Counted from the first letter of the stretch, positions 9,827 to 30,592 are shown. The stretch: 64,000 bases of DNA from an uncultured Phycisphaeraceae bacterium (GCA_964526695.1 CAZGJA010000091.1:82036-146035), one strand, 5' to 3'. The notes: generated by a model from the letters alone, not told the origin. Program-made: numbers and translations.

Positions 9827-9907
9827 GTTCAGGGTGGGAGGCGTGCTTCAGGCCATTCCTGAGAATCGCCAAGGGAGTTGGCAATTGCTGGAGGCGAGCG
9901 TCTGCGT

Positions 9908-12854: not shown

Positions 12855-13082
12855 TTACCCGGCACGATTGACCATCTCCTTGATCAGCCACGCCGCATAG
12901 TGGACCAGGTTCATCGACCCGTCCGCATTCGTGGGCGCTCCGACGACGACGTCGGCTTCGATCATCTCGACGTCCACGCGCTCCCCGCCGACGGCCGACA
13001 GCAGCCGCGCGGCGTCGGCCAGAGGCAGCGCCGTGGGATTCAGGCCGGGCCGGAAAGTTTCAGGCGGCGAGCCGTTGGCCAT
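12855..13082 (-). CDS. Nu1-like terminase small subunit, N-terminal wHTH-like, 75 aa
   Basis: From the internal ATG (13080..13082) with GGAGGA SD: MANGSPPETFRPGLNPTALPLADAARLLSAVGGERVDVEMIEADVVVGAPTNADGSMNLVHYAAWLIKE. The pattern resembles lambda Nu1 N-terminus (LADIFG...YDSAAVIKWY). Confidence 0.35.
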   Translation of the reverse strand: MANGSPPETFRPGLNPTALPLADAARLLSAVGGERVDVEMIEADVVVGAPTNADGSMNLVHYAAWLIKEMVNRAG

Positions 13083-13238
13083 TGCAGGTCCTCCACTGAA
13101 GGGGGCGAGGTCCGCCACGGGTACGCCCACGACGCGCTGCGGGCCCACGTGGGCCGCCCTGCGCGACGCGCGGCGGCCACGGGGCCAACCCGGCGTTGCC
13201 CATCGCGCCAGGGCCGCCCGGCGCGGTGTCACGCCTTT

Positions 13239-13270
13239 GACAGTTCAACCCAAACTTTATGCGAAAATAT
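13239..13270 (+). promoter_or_regulatory. Candidate early promoter (TTGACA -35) for the plus-strand small-gene block
   Basis: ttgacagttcaacccaaactttatgcgaaaatatc lies in a locally AT-richer divergent intergenic region between the Nu1-like gene and 13369. Confidence 0.3.
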
Positions 13271-13368
13271 CTTCCGAAAAAGCGGGGAAACGCTTCCCAT
13301 CTGCGAAAACCAAGCGTAAGGACATGCATGACGCGATCGCGATGGGGCGGCGCGAATGGAGACCAAAG

Positions 13369-13560
13369 ATGACAACGCAAACGATCGAACGACTGACGCG
13401 AGGCACGCGGGTGATCAACATCACCGACGGCGAACCGGGGACGATTGAAGGCGTCTGCACCTACCGCCGAGGCGGACGGGTGTGGTCCTACGCGGTGGTG
13501 ACCACCTACGGCCGCGAGGTCTGGGACGCGAGCGAGACGCTGGTGATCGAGCAGGAGTAA
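13369..13560 (+). CDS. Small hypothetical phage protein (63 aa)
   Basis: GGAGA SD 9 nt before the ATG. The sequence MTTQTIERLTRGTRVINITDGEPG... is the first gene of the plus-strand small-gene block. Confidence 0.4.
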   Translation: MTTQTIERLTRGTRVINITDGEPGTIEGVCTYRRGGRVWSYAVVTTYGREVWDASETLVIEQE

Positions 13561-13572
13561 AGGAGAACGAAC

Positions 13573-13938
13573 ATGAAGACGACGACCGACCCGAACACGA
13601 AGACGCCGGCGAGCAACCCAGACATGAAGAATTGGGAACTGCCGCTGCTGGCCAAGGCCCGCAGGTTCTACCAGGTCACCGTGACCGAGAACGCCGGCAA
13701 CGAGCCCGCCTTCCTGCGGGCCAAGCTCGTCCAGCACGGAGCGGAGGCCGCCGACGACGCCGCGCGACGCATCCACGGGCTGATCCGAACGCTCAACGAA
13801 GCCTACGAGCGGCTGATGAACGCGGGCACGATCGATGACGCCAAGAACGCGGTGTCCTGGCTGCGGACCGATGCCTGGGACACCGTGCAGCGCGACATCG
13901 CCACGCTGGACGCGATCAGCCAGGCGCTGCGGGCTTGA
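13573..13938 (+). CDS. Hypothetical phage protein (121 aa)
   Basis: AGGAGA SD before the ATG. Helical composition. Confidence 0.55.
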   Translation: MKTTTDPNTKTPASNPDMKNWELPLLAKARRFYQVTVTENAGNEPAFLRAKLVQHGAEAADDAARRIHGLIRTLNEAYERLMNAGTIDDAKNAVSWLRTDAWDTVQRDIATLDAISQALRA

Positions 13939-13971
13939 TGAATGACACGCCGAACCCAAGGAGATCGAAAG

Positions 13972-14169
13972 ATGACCACGACCCACGCAACGACCACGAC
14001 CCGGCTCAGCCGGATGGACACGATCCGACTTCAGAAGGTGCTCAAGAGCCTCGTAGCGGCGATGGACGTGCTGCAGCGCTGCGACGACCCCGCGCTGCGC
14101 GAGGCGGCGGATGACGAACTCATGGATGTCGCGGGGCGCTTCGAGATGCTCCTCGACGAGAACCGGTAA
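13972..14169 (+). CDS. Hypothetical small phage protein (65 aa)
   Basis: AAGGAG SD before the internal ATG at 13972 (ORF track start 13942). Confidence 0.45.
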   Translation: MTTTHATTTTRLSRMDTIRLQKVLKSLVAAMDVLQRCDDPALREAADDELMDVAGRFEMLLDENR

Positions 14170-14214
14170 CACGCGCTTCCGGGCCACGCACCCGGCAAGC
14201 CAGGAGATCGAACG

Positions 14215-14442
14215 ATGAAGGCTGCCGTTGCGATTCACTATGACGCGGGTTTGGAGCGCGAAGCGCTGGCCAAGGACATGGCCGACTGGATGGCCGCGGA
14301 GTTCATTCCGTTCAAGCGCGCCCAGCGCATCGAACGCCGCATCCGCACACAGGCCCGCATGACCGGCCTCAGCGTCGAGACCATTCGTGAAGACATCCGT
14401 AGCGACGCGCGCGCCATGCTGGCCGAGGAAGGCATCGAGTAA
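14215..14442 (+). CDS. Hypothetical small phage protein (75 aa)
   Basis: CAGGAGA SD. Tightly spaced tandem small genes. Confidence 0.5.
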   Translation: MKAAVAIHYDAGLEREALAKDMADWMAAEFIPFKRAQRIERRIRTQARMTGLSVETIREDIRSDARAMLAEEGIE

Positions 14443-14469
14443 CCCCGCAACCTTGAAGGAGACCGAAAG

Positions 14470-14712
14470 ATGACCACGAACGATACCCAAAAGACCGCGA
14501 TCGAAACCTACACCGCCCGCCGCGCGGACATCGTCCGGCTGATCGACGTGCTGGAGATGGAGCTCGGCAAGTACGACGAGCGCGCCCAGGCCGAGCCGCA
14601 GCGCTGGGATTTTCCCGGCACGCTCGACTACGTCCGCACCACGCTCATCGACCTGGTCGAAGGCCTGTCGGGCATCGAGCGCGGCGAGATCGAACAATTC
14701 CTCAGCGAATGA
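14470..14712 (+). CDS. Hypothetical small phage protein (80 aa)
   Basis: GAAGGAGA SD. Confidence 0.5.
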   Translation: MTTNDTQKTAIETYTARRADIVRLIDVLEMELGKYDERAQAEPQRWDFPGTLDYVRTTLIDLVEGLSGIERGEIEQFLSE

Positions 14713-14724
14713 AAGGAGCGACCT

Positions 14725-14955
14725 ATGAAGACGATGACGTTTGAAGCGATCGAGTTCGATTCGGCCCATGAGGCCATCCAGCACTACTACGCCAGCGGCC
14801 ACGGCGACCGGGTGATCCAACTCGGCGGCAAGGCCTACCTGACCACGGAGGCGGAGGCCGAGCGCCTCGCCGCGGCGGGCGTCGAGTTCGCCTACGTCTT
14901 CGACCACGACCTGCCCGACGGGCGCAACGTGATCATGACCGTGCCGGTGAACTGA
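14725..14955 (+). CDS. Hypothetical small phage protein (76 aa)
   Basis: AAAGGAG SD. Confidence 0.5.
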   Translation: MKTMTFEAIEFDSAHEAIQHYYASGHGDRVIQLGGKAYLTTEAEAERLAAAGVEFAYVFDHDLPDGRNVIMTVPVN

Positions 14956-15036
14956 CCGCGACCCGAACGCGAGCGCCCTACGGGGCGTCAGCGCCCGGGC
15001 CGCATGGGGCGGCTCGAGGTTGAAAGGAGGAACGCG

Positions 15037-16038
15037 ATGAAGAAGAACGCGGTTCACCTGAACGGGACGTACACCGCGAAGGTGAGTGGCAAGATCGTGC
15101 GTGTCCGCATCGATGCGGAAAGCCCGTACGGGGGCTGGGACGCCACCAACCTCGGCACGCGGAAGAAGATCCGTGTGAAGAGCGCCCAGCGCCTGCGGGC
15201 CGAGGTGGGCGGCACGACGCCGCCGGCGGGCCAAGGGAACGCCCCCGTGGCGAACGTGGCGAGGGACGAGGCCAAGCCGCCCAAGGCCTACGACCCGAAC
15301 CGCTGCGCCACGAGTCGGTGCAAGGGCGAGCCGGCGCTGACGTACCTCGGCAAGCCGCTGTGCCAGAGATGCTGGGACCGACACTGCGCGGAGGAACCGG
15401 CGAGCGCGATGGTCACCGAAGGCGCGGTGCCGCTCGCGGAGGGATTGAACACGTCGCCCGTTGCGGCGGCGAATGAGGCGTCCTGGGAGCGTGCGCTGCC
15501 GGGACCGGAAGATGGGGTGAACGAGGACGACGAACACGAGGACGACAAGGATGAGGACGCCGGCAACGCGCCGGCCAACACCGGCGATGCCGGAGAACTG
15601 GACACCGAAGACATGGCCACGAAGACGAAAAACAAGAAGAGCAAGGTCCGCAAGGGCGTGACGAAGACGACTGCGGCGCGCAAGCCCAAGGTCACGGCGG
15701 ACGCCAGGACGTCGCCCGCCAAGGGCGCGAGGCCCACGAAGTCCAAGGCCCAGCGGACGACGAAGGCCGCGCCGGCCAACGGCGACGGCAAGGCCAAGCG
15801 CGTCAGCGCCATCGACGCCGCGGCGGTGATCCTCAAGGACGCGGGCACGCCGATGCGCTCGCGCGAGATCATCGAAGCCGCCGCCTCCAAAGGTCTGTGG
15901 ACCAGCCCCGCGGGCAAGACGCCGCACGCAACGCTCGACGCGGCCATGCGCCGCGAGATCAACACCAAGGGCAAGGATGCGCGGTTCACGGTCGAAGGCC
16001 GAGGCCTGTTCGGCTTCAACGCCAAGGCGGGGGCGTAG
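15037..16038 (+). CDS. DNA-binding protein with N-terminal CxxC zinc ribbon, Lys-rich histone-H1-like linker and C-terminal HARE-HTH domain
   Basis: AAAGGAGG SD before ATG 15037. The C-terminus AIDAAAVILKDAGTPMRSREIIEAAASKGLWTSPAGKTPHATLDAAMRREI...FTVEGRGLFGF matches the HARE-HTH pattern. The linker is KTKNKKSKVRKGVTKTTAARKPKV. Confidence 0.55.
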   Translation: MKKNAVHLNGTYTAKVSGKIVRVRIDAESPYGGWDATNLGTRKKIRVKSAQRLRAEVGGTTPPAGQGNAPVANVARDEAKPPKAYDPNRCATSRCKGEPALTYLGKPLCQRCWDRHCAEEPASAMVTEGAVPLAEGLNTSPVAAANEASWERALPGPEDGVNEDDEHEDDKDEDAGNAPANTGDAGELDTEDMATKTKNKKSKVRKGVTKTTAARKPKVTADARTSPAKGARPTKSKAQRTTKAAPANGDGKAKRVSAIDAAAVILKDAGTPMRSREIIEAAASKGLWTSPAGKTPHATLDAAMRREINTKGKDARFTVEGRGLFGFNAKAGA

Positions 16039-16041
16039 GTC

Positions 16042-16440
16042 ATGACGACCGCACCGATCGACAACGCGCCGCCTCGGCAACGCGTGGATGTTTTCGAGGT
16101 CCTCGACGGATGTCTGGTGCGCCGGGTCGTCCCCCGCCGCGGCGAACCGTACGAGCATCGCTGTCCGCTGGAGACCTACCGCGAACTGACGTGGGCGGCG
16201 ATCGACCTGGCCGCCGACGGCTTCACCGTCGAGACGCTGGCGGATCAGGTCCGCAGCCGACCGATCGAGGAGCACGACGACCGCGAGCCGTGGGCGTCGT
16301 ACACCAACGCCGCCGTGGCCATCGCGTTCTGGAAGGAGCGCGGGATCGTCGAAACCCGCCGCCGCCGTAACTATGTGGACGACGGGTACTTCTTCGAGGA
16401 TTCGATGATCATGTACCACGCGCTGGCCGAAGGCGCCTGA
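16042..16440 (+). CDS. Hypothetical phage protein (132 aa)
   Basis: Starts 3 nt after the previous stop. Protein-like composition. Confidence 0.5.
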   Translation: MTTAPIDNAPPRQRVDVFEVLDGCLVRRVVPRRGEPYEHRCPLETYRELTWAAIDLAADGFTVETLADQVRSRPIEEHDDREPWASYTNAAVAIAFWKERGIVETRRRRNYVDDGYFFEDSMIMYHALAEGA

Positions 16441-16561
16441 CCTCACGTACCCGCCTCCGACACCTCGGCCGACACCGGGGTGTTTCTCCGGCAACAGAGC
16501 AAAAACCAGCGAGCGCGATATACTTGAGGCGGAGCGCCTGCACCTTCGGGGGAAAAGTCGA

Positions 16562-17056
16562 ATGCGCCGGACGACGATGCACCGAATCCTGAAGTGGACT
16601 GGGACAGCGTCTTGCGCGCTTATTCTGTTGGCAACAGTCGCTTGCCTAAGATGGTATGCCGTCGGCGTTGGATTTGGCCCACCGTTCGGCATCACTTTGA
16701 GCGGTGGGGCGGTCAACGTGTATGTCGAGCATGCACACCAGCCAGGGCCTCCACCGTGGACATCCCCGGAAGGTGTGATCTTCATCCATCGAGACAGTTT
16801 CCCCGCCCGTACTGCATGGTGGCAACTTGGAGTTGTTCCGAGCTTCATGGACAATTCGCATCTGTACGTGCTCCACGTCCCACTATGGATTCTGTTTCTG
16901 TTAGCCTGCATGCCGACAATCCGCCTCTGGCGCTCCGATCGCTACCGCTCCGGGCATTGCACTCAATGCGGCTACAATCTCTTTGGCAACGTCTCTGGAT
17001 GCTGCCCCGAATGCGGCACGCCCATTACGCCACACGCTTCATCCTCCGTTGCGTGA
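16562..17056 (+). CDS. Membrane protein with C-terminal CxxCGYNL-x8-CPECG zinc ribbon
   Basis: Two hydrophobic segments followed by HCTQCGYNLFGNVSGCCPECGTPIT. This is the same motif as the chromosomal ORF 49826..50728. Confidence 0.45.
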   Translation: MRRTTMHRILKWTGTASCALILLATVACLRWYAVGVGFGPPFGITLSGGAVNVYVEHAHQPGPPPWTSPEGVIFIHRDSFPARTAWWQLGVVPSFMDNSHLYVLHVPLWILFLLACMPTIRLWRSDRYRSGHCTQCGYNLFGNVSGCCPECGTPITPHASSSVA

Positions 17057-17201: not shown

Positions 17202-19430
17202 TCATCGCATGTTCTCCTCGCGGGGTTTCATGGAGATCGGCGAGGCGCCGGTGCGTTCCAGGACGGCGGGCTTGCCGGTGAAGCGCTGAAAGCGATCACA
17301 GATCACATCGCAGTAGAGCGGGTCGAGCTCCATCAAGAACGCCCGCCGTCCCGTCTGCTCGGCGGCGATCAGCGTGCTCCCCGAACCGCCGAAAAGGTCG
17401 AGCACGTTCTCGCCAGGCCGCGATGAATACTGCATCGCCCGCACCGAAAGTTCGGCAGGTTTCGCCGTCAAGTGTTCCATCTGCTGGGGGTTGATCTTCT
17501 TGACGTGCCAGAGGTCGGTCGCATTGTTCGGGCCGAGGTAGACGTGCGCCGCGCCCTCGCGCCAGCCGTAGAAACAATTGTGGGTTACGATGCCGTCCGC
17601 GACATAGTGCTCACCGATCGGCACGCCGAGGGAATAGACGTCTCCCGCGTGGTGTTGAACCTCGACGCTCTCGATCGGGCACCATTCGCTCCGCAACCGT
17701 GGCCTCTTGACCGGAACCAGCATCAGCCCGGGGATGAGGTTGCAGGCGCGCACCTGCATTCCCACCCGCCGCCCGAACTTGTCGCGCGTGTCGCCGATGC
17801 GGAGGATCGGATAGTGCGGGTGGCGTTGGAAGGCCGCGAGAGCCGCCAGTGCGCCCTCCTCCATGCGCCGCAGATCCAACTTCTCGTACAGGGCCGCGAT
17901 CTGGTCCGGCTGCCGCTGCTCCTTACGGGCCGGCCCGTAGCCAGGCTCCCAGTAGGTCGTCGGGATGCCGAACCGTACGGATACAGCCTGCTCTTGGACC
18001 ATCGCGTCCACATTGGACGCGTGGACGCTCAGGATCCATGCCTCCTCGGCCTTCTCCTTGGCCAGGCGCTGCTTCGGACCGAGCCCCCAGGTGGTGAGCA
18101 TCTTGGACTTGCCGACGCGCCACCAGTCCCCGCGGCGCATCAAGTAGACACACCACCAGTCCGCAAGGGCTTGGGAGAATCGTACGGTCCAGTGGTGGCC
18201 GGCCGTGCACCACGTGGCCTTCCCAGCGGCGCAGACGTTGTAGAGCAGGCCGTTGTAGACCCGGCTCGTCGCCATCACGGGTACGCCGCGTTTGGCCTGA
18301 AGGAAGTAACTGCGCGAGGCGTCAAACCCGACAACCCGGTCATGGGTCCTCATGGCCTCGATCGAGGAGTAGCCGTCAGCAGTCAAGACCTGCGTGCCGG
18401 CCGGCTGACACCACTCGTGGGCACCCATGAAATCCTTGCGCGTCAGGACCGGATGCTGCTTGTCCCAGATGATCGCCTGCGAAAAGTACAGCCCCACAGC
18501 CTTCAGCACCGGCGGGTAGTTGCCGCAGTTGGCGTAGCCGCCCCAGATGTAGAACCCGCGCCCGGGCAACAACACGCGCGCCATGTTGCCGAACCAGGCG
18601 AGGAGCATTTCGTCGAAGGCCTCGTCTGAAACGAAGTCGTTGAGCAGCGGCCGGTCCTTAGGGCGAAGCTGCGCGTGCGTGGCCTGCTTCGGTCCCTGAC
18701 GCGCCACATCGAAAGCCTGGTGATGATGCAGGCCCTTGTCGCCGCGCGCGGCATCGACGGCCTGGGTCAGATGCTGGTTCTTCATCAGAGAAAATGAACT
18801 GTTCCCTGCGGCAATCGCGTTGTTGCTGCGCGGCTCGACCTTCACGTTGTAGGGGGGGTCTGTATTTACCAAGTGGATCGGCGCGCCGTCGAGCAGCCGG
18901 TCCACGTCGGCCACGGACCCGCTATCACCACACATCAGTCTGTGCTCGCCGAGAATCCAGACGTCGCCGGGCTGGGTGACCGCTTCATCGGGCGGAGCCG
19001 GCACGTCGTCCGGATCAGTCAGACCCGCCTTGATCTCTCCGCCCATGAGCTTGGCCAGCTCGTCCTGATCGAACCCCAGCAGCGACCAGTCGATGCCGGC
19101 GCCCTGAAGGTCGGCCAGCTCAATCGGCAACAGCTCCAGATCCCACGTCGCCAGCTCGTTCGTTTTGTTGTCGGCGATGCGGTACGCGCGAATCTGCTCC
19201 GGCGTCAGATCCCGCGCGACATGCACCGGCACCTCGGTCAGCCCGAGCTTCTGCGCGGCCTTCCAGCGCGTGTGCCCGCAGATGATGACGCCTTCGCCAT
19301 CGATGACGATGGGCTGGCGGAACCCGAAGCGACGGATCGACTCTGCGACCGCGTCCACGGCGGCATCGTTGTCACGCGGGTTCTTGTCGTACGGTCTGAT
19401 CGATGAGAGCGGGCGCAGTTCTACCTGCAT
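17202..19430 (-). CDS. ParB-like nuclease domain fused to N4/N6 DNA methyltransferase, interrupted by an intein
   Basis: The start is the internal ATG at 19428..19430 (GGGAGG SD), giving MQVELRPLSSIRPYDKNPRDNDAAVDAVAESIRRFGFRQPIVI (ParB N-domain). Methyltransferase motifs are NTDPPYN, SQAIIWDK, HEW/CFYGW and LDLFGGSGST. The Hint domain lies between HEW and CFYGW. Confidence 0.85.
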   Translation of the reverse strand: MQVELRPLSSIRPYDKNPRDNDAAVDAVAESIRRFGFRQPIVIDGEGVIICGHTRWKAAQKLGLTEVPVHVARDLTPEQIRAYRIADNKTNELATWDLELLPIELADLQGAGIDWSLLGFDQDELAKLMGGEIKAGLTDPDDVPAPPDEAVTQPGDVWILGEHRLMCGDSGSVADVDRLLDGAPIHLVNTDPPYNVKVEPRSNNAIAAGNSSFSLMKNQHLTQAVDAARGDKGLHHHQAFDVARQGPKQATHAQLRPKDRPLLNDFVSDEAFDEMLLAWFGNMARVLLPGRGFYIWGGYANCGNYPPVLKAVGLYFSQAIIWDKQHPVLTRKDFMGAHEWCQPAGTQVLTADGYSSIEAMRTHDRVVGFDASRSYFLQAKRGVPVMATSRVYNGLLYNVCAAGKATWCTAGHHWTVRFSQALADWWCVYLMRRGDWWRVGKSKMLTTWGLGPKQRLAKEKAEEAWILSVHASNVDAMVQEQAVSVRFGIPTTYWEPGYGPARKEQRQPDQIAALYEKLDLRRMEEGALAALAAFQRHPHYPILRIGDTRDKFGRRVGMQVRACNLIPGLMLVPVKRPRLRSEWCPIESVEVQHHAGDVYSLGVPIGEHYVADGIVTHNCFYGWREGAAHVYLGPNNATDLWHVKKINPQQMEHLTAKPAELSVRAMQYSSRPGENVLDLFGGSGSTLIAAEQTGRRAFLMELDPLYCDVICDRFQRFTGKPAVLERTGASPISMKPREENMR
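17577..18410 (-). other. Intein (278 aa) within the methyltransferase gene
   Basis: Begins with Cys (tgt at 18408..18410) as CQPAGTQVLTADGYS. Block B is TAGHHW. Block F/G is DVYSLGVPIGEHYVADGIVTHN, followed by +1 Cys. Extein junctions reconstitute the conserved methyltransferase HEW-CFYGW region. Confidence 0.75.
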
Positions 19431-20018
19431 GTTGGACCTCCCTGTCCGGAGCGCATCATGTTCCCAACGGCCACGGTATCGCGGCCATCTGCGATTCAAC
19501 CCCAACCGGGGGAATTCCGGTTTTCCCGGAACGGCCACGGCTGGCCTCTGGGGCGTCCGTGCCGAGCCGCGTACGCACGGCCAACCCGCGGCCCGCGTCG
19601 CCCCAGGGCGGCCCGGATCGCGTCGTGGGGCCTCCTGGGCCGGCGAAGCACCCAACCAAAAGCGGACAGGGGGTTGTCCGGTCGTAACTCTTTATTCCCT
19701 CGCGTCTTATGGAAAAACCGGACAGCCGAAAGAAAGTCATTCGATAAGCAGCGCTGTTCCCGCTGGCATTTTCGCAGTATTACTTCACGAAGGAACCATT
19801 GCTTACTCGCGCACAACTCGTGCGAGAGGTTCAAGGGGAGTCGGCGACCAACTTTAGAATCGGTTCCATGCTAACGCTTGCGAGCACGTGTCTCCCGACG
19901 TGAGCCAATGACTGATGGCCCGCCAGCCCTTGGGCCGTGAGCTCCCGTTCGTGTAGAATTCCCCCTAGGCGTGGGCCCGCCGGAGGCGCCTTCGGACCGG
20001 AAGGAGGAGAGCTAACAG

Positions 20019-22346
20019 ATGGCTCGTCAACGTTGTGATCGACCAGGATTGTGGGCTTGGCTTTGGTTTGTCACTCTTGCCTTCGCGATTGACGGTTCTA
20101 GTCGCGCTTCACCATCGGATTGCTTCACCTGGGTCGAGGCCACTCCGGGTCCTCGTCCCAGACGGGAACACGCGACCGCGTTCGATACGAATCGAGAGGT
20201 TTTGGTCCTCTTCGGCGGGTGGGATGGTGACGTTAGTGGCGAGACCTGGGAGTACGACGGAACCTCCTGGGCGCTACGATCGACCACCGGGCCTTCCCCA
20301 CGGCGCTTTCACGGGATGGCCTTCGATTCCAACCGCGGCGTCACAGTACTCTTCGGTGGATCGAATGCCGCCGGCGGACGTAATAGCGAGACCTGGGAAT
20401 GGAACGGAGAGTCTTGGAGCCTCGCCTCTTCCACTGGACCTTCACCGCGCGACAAGCATGCGATGGCTTACGATTCACAACGTAGCGTAACCGTGCTAAC
20501 CGGTGGACACGACGGGGAGACGAATCGGGAAACATGGGAGTGGGACGGAGAATCGTGGATCCTCCGTGCGACCGATGGAATTGACCCCGTCCGGGAGCAT
20601 GCGATGGCTTACGATAGTCGGCGAGCTGTCGTCGTACTCTATGGAGGACGAAGCAGCGGCTATTACCAGCACACGCTTGAATGGGACGGCAGTCGATGGC
20701 ACCTCCGCACATTCGATGGGCCGAACAGTCGCGCCAATCACACGATGACTTTTGACCAGGAACGAGGAGTTACTGTCCTCTTTGGTGGAGAGGTGCAAAG
20801 CAGGCGACTAGGTGATACTTGGGAATGGGACGGCGAGACCTGGCGACGAGTGGCCGAAGAAGGTCCAACACCTCGGCGATCGGCTTCAATGTCTTACGAC
20901 TCCGCGCGCCGACAATGCCTGTTATTTGGTGGTTTTGACGGAAACGACTCCGGAGAAACTTGGGCGTGGCGCGGTGAGCAATGGTCCCTCGATCATTCCT
21001 CGGGTCCACCGTCCCGTTATGGCGCTGCAATTGCCTATGACGAGTCTGCTGAGGTATCCGTTTTGATGGGTGGCGGTACGGCCACCCGGGTGCTTTCCGA
21101 CACTTGGGTCTGGAACGGCGTGGTCTGGAGACAAGCAGTCCAGAACGGACCCTTCGAACGCATATACCCCGAGATGGCGTATGACTCTTGGCGCTCCCGT
21201 GTTGTCCTATTCGGCGGGCGTGATGGGTCCTCACAGGACAAAGCTGAAACGTGGGAATGGGACAATTCGGAGTGGACATTTCGGACAACGTCCGGACCGT
21301 CGGCGCGCTACGATCACGCGATGGCGTTCGACAATCGTCGAAGAGTGACGGTGTTGTTCGGCGGCAACGTTGGCGGTCGTGAAACATGGGAGTGGGATGG
21401 GAATGATTGGTTGCGTGTGGCTACAACAGGTCCATCAGCGCGCCGTGGTCATGCCATGGCCTTTGATGAGCGTCGAGCTGTGACTGTCCTGTATGGAGGG
21501 AACTTCAGCTCACGAGAAACGTGGGAATGGAATGGCAGTCAATGGCATCTGGCCTCCAGCAGCGGACCGACCCCGCGTATCGATCACACGATGGCCTATG
21601 ATCGTGACCGCGAGGTCGTGATGCTCTTCGGCGGAAATGACGGGGGATTCGACAACGAGACGTGGGAATGGGATGGAGAAGTCTGGCGGCGACGAACAGG
21701 GCCCAGTCCGGACGGCAGACGCAGTCCGATCATGGCCTACGACTCCGGCCGTCGTCATCTCGTCCTCTACGGCGGGCTCAAAGAGTCCGGGGACACGGCA
21801 GGTGATACCTGGGAATCGAGTAGCCTTGCCGGGCCCGAGTTTCAGGAACATCCCGTTGATGTGCAGAGCGATCCCGGAGATGATGTCGTGCTGAAGGGAT
21901 CGGCTTTCGGCGCTGAAGATTATCGGTGGACAAAAAATGGAGTCGACGTCGTTGATGGCGATCGCATCATCGGATCCAGAACGCCGATTCTGACGCTTCT
22001 CAATGTCGAGCCAGGTGACGGAGGTCGCTACGCTCTTCGCGCGTCAAATGAATGCGATACGTCGACCAGCCACGACGCTCTCGTATGGGTCGGCGACGTA
22101 GCCTGCGAAGACATCCATCGCCTTTCGGCCAGATGTCATCGCGAGAAAGTTGTCGTCACGGTTTTTCTAAATTCTCTCGCCTTTGACGGCCAGTCGGTCG
22201 TTGTCGCAGCGGGTGAGTTCAAACGCACGCTGCAGATCATAGGCAACAGGGCGCGCGGAAAGTTAAAGAATCCAGAAACGTTCGACTCCATTTCAATCTA
22301 CACCCCTGCCGACTGTGGGATTGAAACAACAGTCGATTGTGAGTGA
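20019..22346 (+). CDS. Secreted Kelch-repeat beta-propeller protein with C-terminal Ig-like domain (775 aa)
   Basis: GGAAGGAGGAG SD. The signal peptide is MARQRCDRPGLWAWLWFVTLAFAIDGSSRA. There are at least 12 repeats of the form FGG...ETWEWDG..W. The Ig-like segment is VLKGSAFGAEDYRWTKNG...GRYALRASNECDTS. Confidence 0.8.
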   Translation: MARQRCDRPGLWAWLWFVTLAFAIDGSSRASPSDCFTWVEATPGPRPRREHATAFDTNREVLVLFGGWDGDVSGETWEYDGTSWALRSTTGPSPRRFHGMAFDSNRGVTVLFGGSNAAGGRNSETWEWNGESWSLASSTGPSPRDKHAMAYDSQRSVTVLTGGHDGETNRETWEWDGESWILRATDGIDPVREHAMAYDSRRAVVVLYGGRSSGYYQHTLEWDGSRWHLRTFDGPNSRANHTMTFDQERGVTVLFGGEVQSRRLGDTWEWDGETWRRVAEEGPTPRRSASMSYDSARRQCLLFGGFDGNDSGETWAWRGEQWSLDHSSGPPSRYGAAIAYDESAEVSVLMGGGTATRVLSDTWVWNGVVWRQAVQNGPFERIYPEMAYDSWRSRVVLFGGRDGSSQDKAETWEWDNSEWTFRTTSGPSARYDHAMAFDNRRRVTVLFGGNVGGRETWEWDGNDWLRVATTGPSARRGHAMAFDERRAVTVLYGGNFSSRETWEWNGSQWHLASSSGPTPRIDHTMAYDRDREVVMLFGGNDGGFDNETWEWDGEVWRRRTGPSPDGRRSPIMAYDSGRRHLVLYGGLKESGDTAGDTWESSSLAGPEFQEHPVDVQSDPGDDVVLKGSAFGAEDYRWTKNGVDVVDGDRIIGSRTPILTLLNVEPGDGGRYALRASNECDTSTSHDALVWVGDVACEDIHRLSARCHREKVVVTVFLNSLAFDGQSVVVAAGEFKRTLQIIGNRARGKLKNPETFDSISIYTPADCGIETTVDCE

Positions 22347-22794
22347 AACCCGAGCATCAATAAGGACTATTTACCCAAGCTCCCTTCTCGCCTGCTGGTT
22401 TGTCTCCCTAATGCCGGCTTGCACAGCGGGAATTCCCAGCGGAGGGCGATCGGCTCAAGCGGCGCCCAGGAGCGCGCGGCGGCTTCAATGGCCGCGCCGG
22501 GTTCTTCGTTCTCGTCGCAGCCCATCGGCAGGAAGCGGTAGAACGCATCCAGCACGACCAGGGCGAACGGGCCCGGCTCGATGGACTCGAAGCAGGCGCG
22601 CAGCGAGACGGCGCGTCCCCACCCCCCAGCGCCAGCACCCGACCGTCGCGGTCAACCCGTTTTGCCACCGCGCATCGTGACCACTCAAGCCGATTCCCCC
22701 GCCAGGCCAACCGACTTCTTTCCCTTCCTTCCCGCCTTCACCCCACCCCATTGTGTGCGCGCGTGAGCAGACGCATAGGCGCGTGCGAGGGGTG

Positions 22795-22880
22795 GGAGAA
22801 AGAGAGAAAGAAGAAGAGAAGTAGTAGTATTTATATATATTTTCATGCATTCTTCTTTCACTGTTCCTTCACCTTCCTTC
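22795..22880. promoter_or_regulatory. AT-rich purine/pyrimidine mirror-palindrome island in the convergent intergenic space next to the primase 3' end
   Basis: gagaaagagagaaagaagaagagaag-tagtagtatttatatatattttcatgcatt-cttctttcactgttccttcaccttccttcc. The GA-rich arm is complementary to the TC-rich arm around an AT-rich core. The surrounding DNA is about 68% GC. Confidence 0.5.
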
Positions 22881-25292
22881 CACGCCTTCGCTCTCCAGCC
22901 GGTACAGCGTGCGGGGCCGCCCCTCGGTCGCCAGGGCGTCGATCGCCACGTCGCCGCGCTGGACGAGCGTCTCGATCAGCTCGCGGAAGCTCTTGGCGTC
23001 AATCTTCATGCGTTTGAGCAGTACGTGGTGCGGGAGGGTCCGGTCCGGGGCATCCCGCAGCTTCTTGAGCAGCCGCAGGCAATGGGCATGGAACGGGTTG
23101 TCGGCCACGTGGCCGGCGGCCTGGTACAGCATCCGCCGGACCTGATGGGTGACCAGCCGTGAGGCCCAGCGGGCGGCCTGCGCGCCGATGCGCGGCTCGC
23201 GGTGGTTCTCACTGACGGCGTAGACCAGGGCGAGCTTGCGGGCCTGCTCGCTGACGCGACCCCAAACCGTGGTGCTAACGGCGTCCTGGGCGGACTGGGC
23301 CCTGTTGTACTCGGCGTCAGCTTCCTCACGGGTTTCGGCAAGCAACCGTCGCGCGTCCTCCGAATGCTCGACGACGGCCGGCGATGGATGAGATTCCGCC
23401 AGATTCCCGGCGCCGGCCCGGAACTCCGCCCACCATTTCGCGGTATCGAGGATGCGCGAGGGCAGCTCGCGGATCGACGATTCCTGACCGCGGCGCTGCT
23501 GACCGGCCTCCAGGATGAGCATGCGGGCGAAGAAGCCGTTGGTCAGCATCCGCTCGGAGAGGGCCTCGTAATAGTGGTTGGGGATGGCCGTACCGAAGAG
23601 GACCAGGCACGGCTGGTCGATGACGCCGGGGTAGTCCTTGCCGGCCTTGCGGCGCATGGGGTAGACGCTGTTCGATGAGGAATACAGCGTCAGCAGCGTG
23701 CTCATCATGGTCTCGTAGCGGGCGTCGCGGGCCTTGTTGATCGACTGCAGGATGCCGTCGATCTCGTCGGTCTGCACGAGCATGGCCGGATCGGCGAACA
23801 GCGCGTCCTGGACGGCCTCGCCCGAGGCCATGCGCTCGCCGAGGCATCGTGTACAGCCCACGGCGTTGAGGATCTGTGTGTTGACTTTCCGCGGCGCATC
23901 CTTGCCGGCCGAGGAATGGGCCAGGGCCAGGACGTAGATGTTGGTCCGATTGTCGCCGGGGTCGCGCACCTTGCGCCCGGCCAGGAACGCCTGCAGCGCC
24001 AGCGCGCCGCCGAACGCCAGGGCTTGATTCGGGTACGGGGCGCTCTCTAGGCAGTAGTCCATCACCTCGCCGATGAAGCCGGGAATCCGCAGAAGCTCGT
24101 TGGGAATCGGCCCGGGATCGGGAGGCTGGATGTCTCCGGGGCCGGCCGGCGCATCGCGCGGTCGGACGCTGAAGCTGGACAGATCTACGTCACCGGAGTC
24201 GACGGGCGGCGGCTCCCAGCCCGGGTCCAGCGCTTTCCGAAGATCATGCCACGTGTACGCCTGCCCGCGGCTGTGCTTGTTGCAGTAGGCCAGCTTGCCG
24301 TTGTTGCCAATAAGAACGGCGATGTCGGAGCCGCCCGTGGAGACGATCTCGGGATCGATCGGGCAGCGTTCGAGTAGAAGCAGCGTCTTGTTTCCGTTGC
24401 GGCGCTCGCCCTTGACAGCCACGCCGCGTCCTTCGAGCCAGGCCCGCACGCCTGCGGGAGTGCAATCGAAACGAGCAGCGTCACTGGCGGGCACGACCGA
24501 GGCCCGTGGTGCGTCGGCGTGGACCCTTGCGGTTTCGGCTACGGTTCGTAGCAGATCTTCAGGCACGACAGCGAGCGTGCCGGGAATGTCGATGAATTCG
24601 GATCGCCGATGCGGACGGTCCTCAAGGCCGGCGACACCGCGCAGCTCATCCCCCTTGCGCGCCGTGGTTCCGACGATCTTGACGATCCGCGCCGCGTTAT
24701 GAACGGAACGATCGACTGCCACATGGCCGTCGCTGAAGCGATCGGCGAGCGCCGCCAGGATGGCCTTCACCAGGCCGCCGTCATCGGCAGGAAGGTTGAT
24801 GCGATAAAGAAGGTGAAAGCCGTTCCCCGACATCACCTGGAGGGGATCGGGCCAACCGATCGATCGCAGGTGGTCTGAGACGCAGCGGGCGCGCTCGTGC
24901 GCCTGCGCCAACTCAGCTTCCGTGGAGCTGATGCCGGCGGGCCGGACCGGGTCCACGTCGATGAGCAGCCAGCGCCGCAGGACGACGTCCTTGTCCGAGG
25001 TGGTCTCGCGGACCCTGGACTTTATACGGTTCGCGGCGCGAGCCAACAGCGCCGGGGCGACGGGGCTCATCGTCACGTACATACCCGGCGCGATCCTCGA
25101 CTGATCCAATTCGGCAATCGCGGCGACGGCTGCATCCAGGGTTTCGTGAGTGAAATACCCACTGCACGTAACGGCGTAGCGCGCATCCTTGCGTTCGCGG
25201 CATTCCGGCGCGCGAACCTCGAACACGTCCCCCGGCTGAAACAGCAGGGAGAGGAAGGCGCGGATCGCAGAGGTATCCCCGGAGTGCTTCAT
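22869..25292 (-). CDS. Phage replication primase-polymerase (Prim-Pol N-domain) with DUF3987-like helicase-associated C-domain
   Basis: LLIDVD and VMSGNGFHLLYRIN motifs are present. The large C-terminal region contains a P-loop-like segment. ATGA overlap with the upstream helicase. Confidence 0.75.
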   Translation of the reverse strand: MKHSGDTSAIRAFLSLLFQPGDVFEVRAPECRERKDARYAVTCSGYFTHETLDAAVAAIAELDQSRIAPGMYVTMSPVAPALLARAANRIKSRVRETTSDKDVVLRRWLLIDVDPVRPAGISSTEAELAQAHERARCVSDHLRSIGWPDPLQVMSGNGFHLLYRINLPADDGGLVKAILAALADRFSDGHVAVDRSVHNAARIVKIVGTTARKGDELRGVAGLEDRPHRRSEFIDIPGTLAVVPEDLLRTVAETARVHADAPRASVVPASDAARFDCTPAGVRAWLEGRGVAVKGERRNGNKTLLLLERCPIDPEIVSTGGSDIAVLIGNNGKLAYCNKHSRGQAYTWHDLRKALDPGWEPPPVDSGDVDLSSFSVRPRDAPAGPGDIQPPDPGPIPNELLRIPGFIGEVMDYCLESAPYPNQALAFGGALALQAFLAGRKVRDPGDNRTNIYVLALAHSSAGKDAPRKVNTQILNAVGCTRCLGERMASGEAVQDALFADPAMLVQTDEIDGILQSINKARDARYETMMSTLLTLYSSSNSVYPMRRKAGKDYPGVIDQPCLVLFGTAIPNHYYEALSERMLTNGFFARMLILEAGQQRRGQESSIRELPSRILDTAKWWAEFRAGAGNLAESHPSPAVVEHSEDARRLLAETREEADAEYNRAQSAQDAVSTTVWGRVSEQARKLALVYAVSENHREPRIGAQAARWASRLVTHQVRRMLYQAAGHVADNPFHAHCLRLLKKLRDAPDRTLPHHVLLKRMKIDAKSFRELIETLVQRGDVAIDALATEGRPRTLYRLESEGVEGR

Positions 25293-26968
25293 CAGAATGG
25301 ACAGTCGTCCGGACGGACGGACGCCGGTGCTGGAACTTGTTCCTCCTCCGAATCCGGGCGAGGGGGTTTCTCGCCCAACCGATAGGCCACAACGTGGTCG
25401 AACTTCTCGCCGGGCTTATGCTCGACGGTCACGCTGAGCGTGAGCGCCACGGCACCGGCATGCGAGAAATCGACGGCGTCCTGGGCGGTTGCGGGTATCG
25501 GGTCGGGCGACCGAGCGCGCCACCAATGCTCGGCCTTCTGGCGCGCGAAGCCTTCGTGCTCGAAACACACCCATTCGCTGACGTACTCATTGAACCCGAC
25601 GCGGTAGTCCACGCGCATCGTCCGCGGCGCATCCGTCGGCGCGCCGCGCTTTGTGTGGACGCTGTAGAACACATCAGTGACTTCGTGCTCGGTGCGCGTA
25701 ATCTGGTCGGAGAGGATGCCTTCGGAAGACGCGGTGGATGCGTGCTTCTCGCGCTCGCGCGGTGGGAACGCGTGCCCGCACGCCGGACAGGTTGTGTAGC
25801 CCGCGGCGATCAGCTCGAGACATTGGGGGCATTCCTTGGCTGGGGCATCGCCGTTGCCGCTGTAATTAGATTCGGTGACGCGCATCGCATCGACGGGCCC
25901 GTGACGCAGGACGTTTCCGCCGAAGTCAAGGACCAGGGCATCGGTTTTGCCCGGGTGCAACCGGAACCCACGCCCAACCATCTGGTAGAAGAGACCCGGC
26001 GACATCGTCGGACGCACCAGCGCCACGCAGTCGATGTTTGGCGCGTCGAACCCCGTCGTCAGCACGTTGACGTTGCACAAGTACTTCAGCTCGCCGCCGC
26101 GGAATCGCTTCAGCGTCACATCACGTTCGAACGGTAACGTCTCGCCGCAAACAAACCCGCACTCCAGGCCGTGACGCTCACCCAATACGCGGCAGATATG
26201 CTCGCCGTGGCGCACGCCGCTGGCGAAAATCAGCACGGACCTGCGGTCCTGCGTGTGCTCGATGATCTCGCGGCAGGCGCCCAGGACGAGGTTGTCGTCG
26301 TCCATGAGCTGCTCGACCTCATTGGCCATGAACTCGCCGGCGCGGACGTGGAGCCGGTCGGTGTCGGGCTTGAGGCTGCCGGCCTTGGTGCGCAGCGGGC
26401 ACAGGTAGCCCTGTACGATGAGCTCGCGGACGCTGATCTCGTAACAGATGTGGTTAAGGACGTTGTCCGGCGCGCAGATGGTGCCGGACTTCATGCGGAA
26501 CGGTGTCGCCGTCAGGCCGACCACACGCACGTTGGGGTTGATGACCTTCAGATCCGCCAGCAGCGTGCGATACATTCCTTCGCCATCGGGCGCAATGAGA
26601 TGGGCCTCGTCGACGAGGATCAGGTCGACAGGCCCGACGTCGCAGGACTTCTCGTACACGGACTGAATGCCAGCGATGGTGACCGCGTAGCCTAGATCCC
26701 GGCGCTTCAGCCCCGCAGAATAGATGCCCAAGGGCAGATCGGGCGCGGTGGCGCGCAGCTTCTCCTCGGCCTGCTCCAGCAGCTCCTTCACGTGCGCCAG
26801 GATAAGCACCCGCCCGTTCCAGACCTGCACCGCGTCGCGGCAGATCGTAGCCATCACCGGCGTCTTGCCGCCGGCGGTGGGGATGACGACGCAGGGGTTG
26901 TCGTCGCGCTCGCGCAGGTGCGCGTACACCGCATCGACAGCCTCACGTTGATAGGGTCGGAGGATCAA
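25292..26968 (-). CDS. DEAH-box SF2 helicase with C-terminal zinc ribbon
   Basis: Helicase motifs YQREAV, PTAGGKT, DEAH, TATP and QMVGRGFR. Zinc ribbon CPQCLELIAAGYTTCPACGH. Confidence 0.85.
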   Translation of the reverse strand: MILRPYQREAVDAVYAHLRERDDNPCVVIPTAGGKTPVMATICRDAVQVWNGRVLILAHVKELLEQAEEKLRATAPDLPLGIYSAGLKRRDLGYAVTIAGIQSVYEKSCDVGPVDLILVDEAHLIAPDGEGMYRTLLADLKVINPNVRVVGLTATPFRMKSGTICAPDNVLNHICYEISVRELIVQGYLCPLRTKAGSLKPDTDRLHVRAGEFMANEVEQLMDDDNLVLGACREIIEHTQDRRSVLIFASGVRHGEHICRVLGERHGLECGFVCGETLPFERDVTLKRFRGGELKYLCNVNVLTTGFDAPNIDCVALVRPTMSPGLFYQMVGRGFRLHPGKTDALVLDFGGNVLRHGPVDAMRVTESNYSGNGDAPAKECPQCLELIAAGYTTCPACGHAFPPREREKHASTASSEGILSDQITRTEHEVTDVFYSVHTKRGAPTDAPRTMRVDYRVGFNEYVSEWVCFEHEGFARQKAEHWWRARSPDPIPATAQDAVDFSHAGAVALTLSVTVEHKPGEKFDHVVAYRLGEKPPRPDSEEEQVPAPASVRPDDCPF

Positions 26969-28869: not shown

Positions 28870-29652
28870 TTACTCTCCTTGCGTTTGCGGGTCTTCAGTC
28901 GTTGTGGCCGGCACTTCACCGCGCACATACGCGGCGAAGATGCGGTAATCCAATGGAATCTCGTCGGGCAGGCCGAGGCGGTTCTTCGCCACGTGCGCCG
29001 GGCGCTCCGTCGTGCGGAGGATGCGCTCGCCCTGGCCGATGCCCTGGACGCGCAGGCGATCGAACGCTTCCTTCGTGGTCTTGGTGTGGACCTTGTACGT
29101 GGCGAAGAGCACCTCGTCGCACCACTGCTGGACCAGCGCTGAGGCCAGCTTCTGGAGACGCGGGCTATAGCGGTCGTAGGTGTCGGTCTCGGGATTGGCG
29201 AACTTCTCGATCTGGGCATGCGCCAGCAGGACGATCGTCATCCCCCGCTCGTTGCGCAGGGCGTCGAAGCCCTGAAGGATCTCGCGCCACTGGGTGAGCG
29301 CGAACACGTAGCTCTTCCCGTAGGGGATCTCCTCCATGCTCTTGACGCCGTGGGCCTCGCAGACGTCGACCCAGATGAGCCGCTCGAGCCAGTCGAGGCT
29401 GTCGACGACGAGCGTGCGAAAGGTGTGCTCTCGCGTGAACAGTTCACCGAGCGCCGCCAGGACGTCGCGGTAACGCAGCGCGAGAGGGAAGCGCTGACAA
29501 TCGATGTGCGCCAGGCCATCTTCGGTCTGGATGAAGATCGGGGCTTCGGCCATCGAGCCGAAGGTCGATTTTCCAATGCCTTGTGTTCCATACAGCAGCA
29601 CGCGCCGCGGCGCCACCACCTTTCCGCTTTGAACCTGATCCATCAAACTCAT
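28870..29652 (-). CDS. Sak4-like RecA-fold ATPase (AAA_24)
   Basis: Walker A LLYGTQGIGKSTF. Walker B VVDSLDWL. Phage recombination-module context. Confidence 0.7.
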   Translation of the reverse strand: MSLMDQVQSGKVVAPRRVLLYGTQGIGKSTFGSMAEAPIFIQTEDGLAHIDCQRFPLALRYRDVLAALGELFTREHTFRTLVVDSLDWLERLIWVDVCEAHGVKSMEEIPYGKSYVFALTQWREILQGFDALRNERGMTIVLLAHAQIEKFANPETDTYDRYSPRLQKLASALVQQWCDEVLFATYKVHTKTTKEAFDRLRVQGIGQGERILRTTERPAHVAKNRLGLPDEIPLDYRIFAAYVRGEVPATTTEDPQTQGE

Positions 29653-29758: not shown

Positions 29759-30592
29759 TCACAGGCGCTCGATCAACCTCAGCCCCTCGAACCGCGTGAA
29801 CCAGTTGCCTGTCTCGCGGCAGACCTTCAGATCGCGCAGGGCGTGTTCGTTTTCGAGCTGCGCCTCATCCAGCGCGCGCGGCGCGAGTTGCCAGACGCCG
29901 CCGCGGAAGGGCTCGCGCTTCTCGATGGCCACGATGTGCGCCGGGAGGATGCGCCCGCTGACCCGCGCAACGAGCACGCGGTAGAACGCGACCTGGTGGA
30001 CGTAGCCGAAGGCGCGGATCGCCGCCTCAAACGTGTCGATCTCGTCGCAGGTCTTGAGGTCCACGATCCCCCGGCCGGGAACGGGATTGACCCAGTCGAT
30101 CCGCGCCTGGCAGCGATGCCCGGCGTATTCGCAGCGCACCACGCCCTCCGCGACACCCTCGGAAAACAGTTCCCTGGCGAAGAGATGCTCGCGCACCGCC
30201 GCGGCCATCTGCTCGACCAGCGCCGCCTGCGCATCGCTGAGCACGGGCTTGCTCTGCTTCCCGGCCCATGCGGCAAACGCATTGCTGTTCGATCGGAAGG
30301 GCTTGCCCGTCTTGGCGTTGACGGGTCCGCCGAAGGCGAACTCGCGCTCGTAGCGCTGCCGGCCTTCGAGAATGAGCGTGTGTCCCGCGCGCCCCACGAG
30401 GTAGAACGAGGCGTCGCGTTTGCCGACCAAGCCCAGCTCCATGCGGTGGTAGAGCCGCGGGCAGAGACGAAAGTCCCGCAGCGCATGGGACGTCACGTGG
30501 TCCTTCGCCCTGGCGTGGTAGACCTCCGCCGGCTCGCGAAGGAGGAAGCGCAGGTCGAGTCGGCTCGCGTCCCCTTGAAGCGTGGTGCTCAT
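29759..30592 (-). CDS. PD-(D/E)XK family nuclease (phage exonuclease/Cas4-like)
   Basis: Taken from the internal ATG 30590..30592 (GGAGG SD). RIDWVNPVPGRGIVDLKTCDEID is D...DLK-type. The upstream part of the track ORF is Arg-rich shadow. Confidence 0.55.
   Translation of the reverse strand: MSTTLQGDASRLDLRFLLREPAEVYHARAKDHVTSHALRDFRLCPRLYHRMELGLVGKRDASFYLVGRAGHTLILEGRQRYEREFAFGGPVNAKTGKPFRSNSNAFAAWAGKQSKPVLSDAQAALVEQMAAAVREHLFARELFSEGVAEGVVRCEYAGHRCQARIDWVNPVPGRGIVDLKTCDEIDTFEAAIRAFGYVHQVAFYRVLVARVSGRILPAHIVAIEKREPFRGGVWQLAPRALDEAQLENEHALRDLKVCRETGNWFTRFEGLRLIERL

Follow-up and report, generated by a model that had tools for sequence, protein, structure and literature searches.

Morons are extra genes of temperate phages, with bor and lom of lambda and the morons of HK97 and HK022 as named examples; they often encode surface or secreted products that alter the lysogen and are often read independently of the flanking operon, and an autonomous promoter and terminator are their classical hallmark. 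Iteron-type replication origins are represented by the lambda ori with its O protein and by the ori/crr of satellite phage P4, where the alpha primase-helicase binds the repeats through its C-terminal winged helix. To our knowledge, experimental work on the phages of Phycisphaerae or other planctomycetes is almost nil, and the literature yielded nothing specific on Phycisphaerae prophages, Kelch morons or GC-type dockerins. The present analysis concerns positions 19,431 to 22,880 of a 64,000-nt stretch of DNA from an uncultured Phycisphaeraceae bacterium (GCA_964526695.1, CAZGJA010000091.1:82036-146035; the whole stretch is referred to as the window). In this region of a prophage, a gene for a protein of Kelch repeats and an immunoglobulin-like (Ig) domain, here termed the Kelch/Ig gene, lies between a primase gene and a DNA methyltransferase gene and close to an AT-rich palindrome. 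The region probably holds two adjacent things, namely an inserted moron-type cargo that carries the Kelch/Ig gene and a phage replication origin that resides in a conserved element, module A, which contains the palindrome.

The Kelch/Ig gene resembles the known morons in that it separates, as an additional gene, two genes that are neighbors in close relatives and in that its composition is atypical. It differs from the classical morons in four respects: an autonomous promoter and terminator are not demonstrable, the gene resides in a Phycisphaerae-type planctomycete, it encodes a 775-aa double propeller rather than a small outer-membrane protein, and the insert includes a dead gene fragment. 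Module A, in turn, resembles the lambda and P4 origins in its short repeats at helical spacing beside an AT-rich segment and in its position adjoining an initiator gene. As in those systems, the repeat sequence and the DNA-binding domain vary together among related phages, and the neighboring primase, like P4 alpha, unites primase and helicase in one protein that ends in a winged helix. There is no sequence similarity to lambda O or P4 alpha; module A also differs in that it lies downstream of the initiator gene rather than inside it, and in that its repeats form three groups (direct, inverted and direct), which give it a palindromic look.

A foreign segment in the prophage backbone

The Kelch/Ig gene (20019..22346, + strand, 775 aa) lies between the minus-strand genes of the primase (22869..25292) and the methyltransferase (17202..19430), as described in a first-pass annotation of this DNA and as supported by Pfam and a structure model. 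The layout given there is right, except that the left gene starts at 19430 and not 19431 and that the spacers measure 588 bp on the left and 522 bp on the right. Each spacer is a composite of cargo and backbone. The left one, described earlier as a divergent promoter region of 590 bp, consists largely of conserved backbone (19431 to about 19807), and about 210 bp of it belong to the cargo. The gene reads antisense to its flanks, as had been stated, but it is not the sole plus-strand gene of the prophage (others are located at 13573..17056 and 4148..9826).

A search with the primase identified 17 viral contigs and 19 genome loci as relatives (L001-L036). The gene order sak4, helicase, primase, gap, ParB/methyltransferase and terminase (terL) is present in all of these loci that are long enough, and no Kelch match is found in any of L001-L036. 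The gap between the primase and methyltransferase genes measures 441-2601 bp in the 13 loci with both ends mapped, compared with 3.4 kb in the window. A comparison with L001, the closest viral contig (proteins 73-80% identical), reveals that synteny jumps from window position 22836 to 19442, where the gap in L001 is only approximately 0.5 kb. In eight further loci (L041-L044 and L099-L102), gene calling gives no Kelch gene next to the primase; seven of these have a primase with 70-79% identity, and two are complete Phycisphaerae chromosome or contig records. The Kelch gene is missing at this site in every relative that keeps both flanking genes, including eleven with a 70-79% identical primase.

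The inserted segment extends over 19808..22690 (approximately 2.9 kb, with limits good to roughly +/-30 nt), as obtained from tblastx, blastn, alignments A2 and A3 and local alignments. It is composed of approximately 210 bp upstream of the gene (19808..20018, + strand; GC 0.48-0.69 per 100 nt in the GC profile of the sequence), the Kelch/Ig gene, approximately 75 bp of low-GC DNA and approximately 275 bp of GC-rich DNA with a dead minus-strand frame. This orphan fragment ('...FALVVLDAFYRFLPMGCDENEEP...', 22370..22651; GC 0.66-0.71) lacks a start codon and has no match in Pfam, in the related loci or in a search of 5.8 billion proteins; it is probably a remnant brought along with the cargo. 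The Kelch/Ig gene has a GC content of 0.58 and a GC content at third codon positions (GC3) of 0.58, compared with GC3 values of 0.82-0.87 for the phage genes and 0.80-0.88 for the host genes. Because the relatives lack the gene at this site, the GC3 is foreign and the homologs are chromosomal (see below), the Kelch/Ig gene is an optional moron-type cargo of foreign composition and cellular affinity, and the comparison with related prophages supports what the first-pass annotation had suggested.

At the ends of the insert, neither a clean target-site duplication nor a terminal inverted repeat can be defined. In the relatives, a conserved backbone box, module B ('ATGGTTCCTTC..(37 nt)..CGGGAACAGC....GACTTTCTTTCGGCTGTCCGG'; 19719..19807, - strand, from alignment A3, local alignments and the sequences of L041 and L044), comes directly after module A. 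In local alignments, the stretch of 25-45 nt behind module A in the relatives matches, in diverged form, both sides of the insert, at 22681..22712 and at 19771..19807. The copy beside module A resembles L001, whereas the copy beside module B resembles L018 and L044, and the latter is exactly 37 nt long, the same as in L044. Because the two flank copies resemble different relatives, they hint that the cargo may have come in by recombination with another related phage rather than by transposition. With respect to expression, a GGAGG Shine-Dalgarno sequence is located ahead of the gene at 20003-20007, and a weak TTGGGC-18 nt-TAGAAT motif in the upstream region was noticed by eye only; the promoter of the gene presumably lies in 19808..20018.

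Structure of the Kelch/Ig protein

Pfam, repeat motifs, hydropathy, AlphaFold and Foldseek were used to define the domains of the protein, which are a signal-like segment (residues 1-30), blades 1-12 (residues 37-601), an I-set Ig domain (residues 606-691) and a Cys-containing C-terminal domain (residues 694-775). Membership in the Kelch families PF24681, PF13415 and PF13418 was tested; the protein matches PF24681 with an E-value of 7.8e-44 (150 bits, cut-off 50) as well as Kelch_3 and Kelch_4. The [LVM]-x-G-G motif occurs 12 times with a period of approximately 47 aa, which indicates exactly 12 blades, and the AlphaFold model, which was built from 17 sequences, contains 12 four-stranded blades over residues 37-601 with a predicted local distance difference test (pLDDT) score above 90 in the blades and a mean of 83. 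The Kelch propeller proposed in the first-pass annotation is therefore correct, with the blade count of 'at least 12' now replaced by exactly 12. In Foldseek, each half of the protein resembles six-bladed Kelch propellers, such as that of KLHDC2 (TM-score 0.72 on the target), and the protein therefore contains two six-bladed propellers in tandem.

The I-set Ig domain (PF07679) is matched at residues 606-685 with 28.1 bits against a cut-off of 23.7, the model contains an Ig sandwich with strands in residues 607-691 (pLDDT 80-95), and a phmmer search matches this region to Ig domains of titin and DCC. The N-terminus contains R3, R5 and R8, followed by a 13-residue hydrophobic stretch from L11 to I23 (hydropathy up to 2.1) and by S-R-A|S-P, and is signal-like by sequence; in the model, residues 11-24 form a detached N-terminal helix. 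Comparable N-termini are present in nearly all full-length homologs (alignment A1), and that of the window protein looks like a Sec signal. The C-terminal tail of approximately 80 aa (residues 694-775) contains four Cys residues. It aligns to none of the 120 top homologs, and a search of 1.8 billion representative proteins gives just six weak relatives, among them one Kelch fragment that also ends in this tail and three secreted proteins rich in Cys.

Cellular and viral relatives of the Kelch/Ig protein

A large protein search reveals thousands of Kelch/Ig relatives, the best of which are 37-50% identical and originate from metagenome-assembled genomes of Phycisphaerae and Planctomycetota. Sixteen homologs, mostly of similar length, have the same layout of signal peptide, 12 blades and Ig domain. 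Two homologs whose surroundings were checked sit in ordinary chromosomal settings, with glycosyltransferase and ABC-exporter genes in one case and groES/groEL and dnaJ nearby in the other. The homologs end in a GC-type dockerin (NF041540; 46 bits for P0029 and 38 bits for P0038, cut-off 29). The window protein is like these Phycisphaerae/Planctomycetota surface proteins with a dockerin anchor in its signal-like N-terminus, its 12 blades, its single I-set Ig domain and its length (approximately 740-800 aa in the group), and it is 35-42% identical to them over almost the entire propeller and Ig region. Unlike them, it has no NCBIfam match and no dockerin_GC domain, ends in the rare four-Cys domain of approximately 80 aa, and is carried by a prophage rather than located in an ordinary chromosomal setting.

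No Kelch/Ig relative is present among 50,697 GenBank phage records, and the only PHROG match of the protein is marginal (E = 3.7e-4). Kelch-repeat proteins are nevertheless present on 53 IMG/VR viral loci. Unrelated viral contigs (L048, also L046-L070) encode Kelch-propeller proteins of 250-3100 aa, and in L048 (IMG/VR 3300024520_000572) the Kelch gene (7962..10526) lies downstream of baseplate hub and wedge genes and upstream of an endolysin gene. PHROG annotation assigns the viral Kelch proteins only to families of unknown function; in some unrelated phages, Kelch propellers are probably tail or receptor-binding modules. These viral proteins, for example that of L048, are like the window protein in their tandem blades with a 'TWEWDG' signature and, in some cases, in their two propellers. 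However, none of the 13 inspected has a signal peptide, all 13 agree in GC content with their own contig, the viral proteins have no Ig domain, they are unrelated to the window backbone, and they are only 24-41% identical to the window protein (most 30-37%), so that the cellular proteins are closer. The first-pass annotation had named homologs in the form of conserved, signal-less tail proteins of related phages as an argument against cargo; the Kelch proteins that look like tail components and are signal-less are found only in unrelated viral contigs.

Module A, a conserved origin-like element

The first-pass annotation placed a palindrome with a GA run, an AT core and a TC run at 22795..22880 in DNA of roughly 68% GC. 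This palindrome is real, but its arms extend only over 22797-22868, and the flanking phage DNA is 64-67% GC. The arms (22797-22815 and 22850-22868) are 19 nt each, are complementary at 16 of 19 positions (84%), and enclose a 34-nt AT-rich center in which the GC content falls to a minimum of 0.12 in 24 nt (22828-22851). The palindrome is part of module A (22711..22900, - strand), located immediately behind the stop codon of the primase gene, which was delimited from the inverted repeat, the clustering of iterons, the DNA identity to L001 and the layout in relatives. In minus-strand order, module A consists of direct iterons (22852-22882, GTGAARGAAG-like), the AT-rich core (approximately 22823-22851), inverted iterons (22797-22822), a GC-rich spacer (approximately 22750-22790) and further direct iterons (22715-22741). 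The first direct iterons begin at positions 22852, 22863 and 22873, a spacing of 10-11 bp or approximately one helical turn, and the iteron word has seven matches in 168 bp of module A, compared with approximately 1.2 per kb elsewhere in the window. The palindrome corresponds to the first inverted iteron pair across the AT core.

Module A is conserved in the backbone of these phages. The 280 bp from window position 22990 to 22711 are 76% identical to L001 DNA, and module A recurs in L018, L019, L023, L041 and L044. Its general layout, with 3-6 direct repeats, the AT core, 2-3 inverted copies, a GC-rich spacer of 40-50 bp and 2-3 direct copies, is present in 13 regions (the window and 12 related loci), including distant Lentisphaerae/Victivallales phages whose primases are 35-40% identical. 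The iteron words differ between lineages and include GAAGGAA, GAAAGAA, AATCCGTCA, GTAACAA, GTGAATT, GGGGAAA and GGGAAGT. Because the palindrome is present in relatives without the cassette, it is conserved backbone and not part of the cargo, from which it is separated by approximately 140 bp more backbone; the earlier view that it bounds the cassette does not hold, and the possibility raised at the same time, that it would be absent from homologous phages, is contradicted. An open reading frame that runs through the palindrome (22485..22850, - strand, 121 aa; 168 aa in L001) is regarded as non-coding, since only the part in the conserved DNA is similar and the frame is otherwise not conserved. 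A search of 19000..23500 against Rfam gave only sub-threshold matches to microRNA precursors, which represent generic hairpins.

The primase-helicase and its exchange together with the iterons

The gene beside module A (22869..25292, - strand) encodes an 807-aa replication initiator of the primase-helicase type, as indicated by PHROG 3022 ('DNA primase'), the domains of homologs, AlphaFold and Foldseek. Its N-terminus is Prim-Pol-like and its core resembles a helicase of the DUF3987/AAA+ type, and a winged helix is located at the C-terminus (residues 732-798; window 22899..23099). Its homologs carry PF13148, PF09250 and PF08708 (DUF3987, Prim-Pol and PriCT) and are annotated as members of the DUF3987/YfjI family. 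In the AlphaFold model (pLDDT 83), the C-terminal topology H-b-H-H-b-b is that of a winged helix, with helices at residues 732-746, 754-761 and 765-778 and strands at residues 751-753, 781-786 and 793-798 (pLDDT 82-89). The primase has no sequence match in the PDB. The Foldseek neighbors are MCM, ORC/Cdc6, the NrS-1 primase-helicase, Prim-PolC and a small winged-helix regulator; the regulator 3r0a matches a 66-column stretch with a root-mean-square deviation of 2.1, and although the output gives no query position, we infer that this match falls in the C-terminal domain. The primase is like the NrS-1 primase-polymerase/helicase, MCM and ORC in that an AAA+/helicase-like core is followed by a winged helix, and Prim-PolC matches the N-terminus; this is a likeness of fold only, with 9-15% identity and TM-scores of 0.1-0.26 on the query.

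A comparison of L003, L004 and L007 reveals that their primases are 90-100% identical up to the last approximately 60 residues and then only 29-53% identical at the protein level. At the DNA level, identity is 38-56% from the primase tail through the iterons and returns to 82-96% at module B. In the pairs that share iterons (L006/L025, L004/L010 and the window/L018), the primase tails are conserved at least as well as the remainder of the protein. The winged helix and the iterons are thus replaced jointly. Because both are exchanged together, in the pattern of the lambdoid O/ori and the P4 alpha/ori, module A is probably an origin with iterons that would be read by the winged helix of its initiator, and replication would be initiated there. 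Of the two roles that the first-pass annotation had offered for the palindrome, this comparative evidence favors a replication origin over a terminator.

A model for the locus and its alternatives

In the proposed model, a temperate phage of a Phycisphaerae-type host took up approximately 2.9 kb of DNA in the short non-coding gap that separates its primase gene from its methyltransferase gene. This DNA carries one intact gene of cellular type, antisense to the backbone genes and with its own ribosome-binding site, and the product most likely leaves the cytoplasm via Sec. The exported double six-bladed propeller may serve as a binding platform, followed by the Ig domain and the small Cys-containing domain. 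Lysogenic conversion is the most likely consequence, in which a moron presumed to be expressed from the prophage and to benefit the lysogen would change its surface or its extracellular binding. Next to the cargo, the AT core of module A would act as the unwinding element of the phage origin while the C-terminal winged helix of the adjacent primase-helicase binds the iterons. The cargo occupies a variable slot just past the origin-like element.

Several observations weigh against parts of this model. No donor closer than approximately 50% identity was found for the Kelch/Ig gene. Consensus scans, which are not tuned for planctomycetes, gave no promoter upstream and no terminator downstream of the gene, and the C-terminal domain of the protein is modeled poorly (pLDDT about 30). 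With regard to the origin, L003 and L007 have the core word GTGAAT in common despite their different primase tails; the winged helix and the iterons are also adjacent, and linkage alone could give their joint replacement. The cumulative GC skew tracks gene orientation here and is uninformative for an origin, and the palindrome hairpin could additionally act on transcription. A more elaborate scenario, which we consider unlikely, would have the phage capture a member of the host Kelch-Ig surface family with its dockerin anchor swapped. The copy would then compete with or re-target host surface proteins, for example as a released decoy or as a factor of superinfection exclusion, masking a receptor or ligand that related phages use. 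As an independent point in the same scenario, the non-coding stretch past the origin would serve specifically to receive antisense cargo (Kelch, HigBA, TrpF and HNH) across phages of Planctomycetota and Lentisphaerota, with the cargo perhaps moving by recombination at the flanking conserved boxes.

Other roles for module A were also considered. The palindrome might mainly be a bidirectional transcription terminator that insulates the convergent Kelch and primase transcripts, given that it lies between convergent genes in the window and that its RNA forms a long imperfect hairpin of -36.9 kcal/mol (z = -2.6), moderately above chance as 6 of 200 shuffles fold equally well; the minus-strand version folds as well. 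A terminator is nonetheless improbable: no U/T tract follows either arm, the terminator scan does not flag the palindrome, the 34-nt AT-rich center makes a poor loop, and the arms are purine and pyrimidine runs. Moreover, the element is kept in relatives in which the genes are co-directional and nothing converges, and a terminator would explain neither the additional direct repeats, which number three to six and are spaced by a helical turn, nor the joint replacement with the winged helix of the primase; a secondary role in transcription pausing is possible. Repeat arrays around AT-rich or bent segments are also known at cos and pac packaging sites and at repressor operators, and in co-oriented relatives module A is located at the border between the replication genes and the block from ParB/methyltransferase to terminase, with a TATATAA-like word in the spacer of distant relatives. 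However, variable gene blocks separate module A from the terminase gene (2.4-5 kb in relatives and approximately 10 kb in the window), the integrase and the attachment end are elsewhere (31855..33272), and the repeats change with the DNA-binding tail of the primase-helicase and not with the terminase or a repressor gene, which makes a packaging or operator site quite improbable in comparison with an origin, although module A might have such a function as a secondary role.

For the cargo, the 53 viral loci with Kelch proteins, the GC-matched and signal-less nature of all 13 inspected, and the position of the L048 gene among baseplate and endolysin genes raise the question of whether the Kelch/Ig protein is a virion component, such as a tail fiber or receptor-binding protein, all the more since Ig-like domains often decorate virions. 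We give this very little credence, because the protein and its cellular homologs share a signal-like N-terminus, the gene is situated in the replication module and on the other strand, is absent from every examined relative of the phage and has a GC3 foreign to it, the closest proteins with the same architecture are cellular (37-50%) rather than viral (24-41%), and the sole PHROG match is marginal. The insert could also have arisen through chimeric assembly, or could be host DNA enclosed by two pieces of prophage, in view of its composition, which is unlike both flanks, of the GC-rich gene fragment without identifiable match, and of the probably metagenome-derived source assembly. This is hardly credible, since a contig of Logan, a separate assembly collection, is 100% identical over 7,595 bp spanning both insert junctions (SRR13076506), modules A and B are intact and the backbone continues in register on either side of the insert, and the neighboring genes are full length. 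An inserted moron beside a probable origin is therefore retained as the preferred interpretation of the region.

Other cargo and neighboring genes

The slot between the primase and methyltransferase genes carries other genes in the relatives, mostly reading against the backbone genes. These include a HigB toxin with a presumed antitoxin HigA in L005 (10408..11075); HigB with a presumed HigA, an HNH endonuclease and small Cys-rich open reading frames in L025 (4970..6560); and phosphoribosylanthranilate isomerase (PRAI, TrpF) with small Cys-rich open reading frames in L024 (11390..12555). Elsewhere in the window, a gene with FG-GAP/VCBS and Laminin_G_3 domains (4148..9826, + strand, 1892 aa) has a GC3 of 0.60 and is located between the large terminase and portal genes. 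The corresponding gap in L018 is just 738 bp and does not contain the FG-GAP gene, on which basis this gene is also cargo, and the window prophage holds at least two cargo pieces of the same general kind. The description of the Kelch/Ig gene as a second cargo in the first-pass annotation is in line with this result. The FG-GAP protein contains about 22 Cys-rich 'DCNxNxIPDECD' repeats. In L041 (10393..12939) and L042 (the Phycisphaerae chromosome CP054187.1 and BQMN01000012.1), which are close relatives of the window prophage, a diversity-generating retroelement is present between the methyltransferase and terminase genes, with a target protein of the FGE-sulfatase fold, bAvd and a reverse transcriptase.

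The prophage backbone in the window contains the portal (1255..2805), large terminase (10090..12429), helicase (25292..26968), Sak4-like ATPase (28870..29652), exonuclease (29759..31417) and integrase (31855..33180) genes. The integrase gene adjoins a tRNA-Lys gene (33198..33272), at which the prophage is integrated, and cellular genes, for example that of an M14 peptidase, follow to the right of about 33.3 kb. The window contains no second copy of the 3' end of tRNA-Lys that would mark the other attachment site, and the far end of the prophage lies beyond position 1. The closest relatives of the prophage are in Phycisphaerae and Phycisphaerales genomes. In L020 (CP070827.1) and L022, the primase homolog is truncated (residues 1-703 and 6-374), with no methyltransferase or terminase gene within 10 kb; these loci are probably decayed prophage remnants.

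The left backbone neighbor of the cargo (17202..19430, - strand) encodes ParB_N and N6_N4 DNA methyltransferase domains, as assigned by Pfam and PHROG. An intein-like insertion of approximately 277 aa in this gene (17577..18407, - strand; residues 342-618) is absent from all relatives; it starts with 'CQPAGTQVLTADG' and ends with 'GIVTHN' followed by Cys (C...THN|C), the hallmark of an intein, and its match to Pfam Intein_splicing is weak (E = 0.003, below the cut-off). The non-coding region upstream of the gene is conserved (19431..19807 in the minus sense; L001 6185..6530, L018 12700..12990 and L041 8690..9010) and contains a box 'CGCGGGAACAGC...GACAGAGTTTGTTGCGCCTGTCCGG', a T run in some members and then several words of the GTTGGCC/GGCCAAC type. 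This region could be a late promoter or a terminator, or it could serve as a target of the ParB-like domain or of the packaging machinery. Further left, eight small plus-strand genes (121, 75, 75, 80, 76, 344, 132 and 164 aa) occupy 13573..17056. A 1283-aa open reading frame on the opposite strand (13060..16911, - strand) is spurious, with an Arg/Ala/Gly/Val-rich translation opposite eight well-formed genes. Three of the eight plus-strand genes are preceded by a repeated AAGGAGAYCGAAAGATG start region, and the C-terminus of the 344-aa protein is HARE-HTH-like by eye. An equivalent antisense block is present in L044, L101 and L102 and includes a Fic gene in L101 and L102.

Implications for planctomycete phages

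The cargo and the probable origin are both of ordinary, well-known kinds, and neither changes the understanding of phage biology. The Kelch/Ig locus is a clear and testable case of lysogenic-conversion cargo in planctomycete phages, in which the exchange of the anchor domain, from a dockerin to another C-terminal domain, is the one unusual detail. The results may be of use for prophage annotation in poorly studied phyla and for the choice of constructs, for example an origin fragment together with the initiator as a replicon. For a widespread lineage of phages extending to Lentisphaerae and Victivallales, they provide a probable origin with exchangeable iterons and a matching winged helix, together with an adjacent hot spot for cargo.

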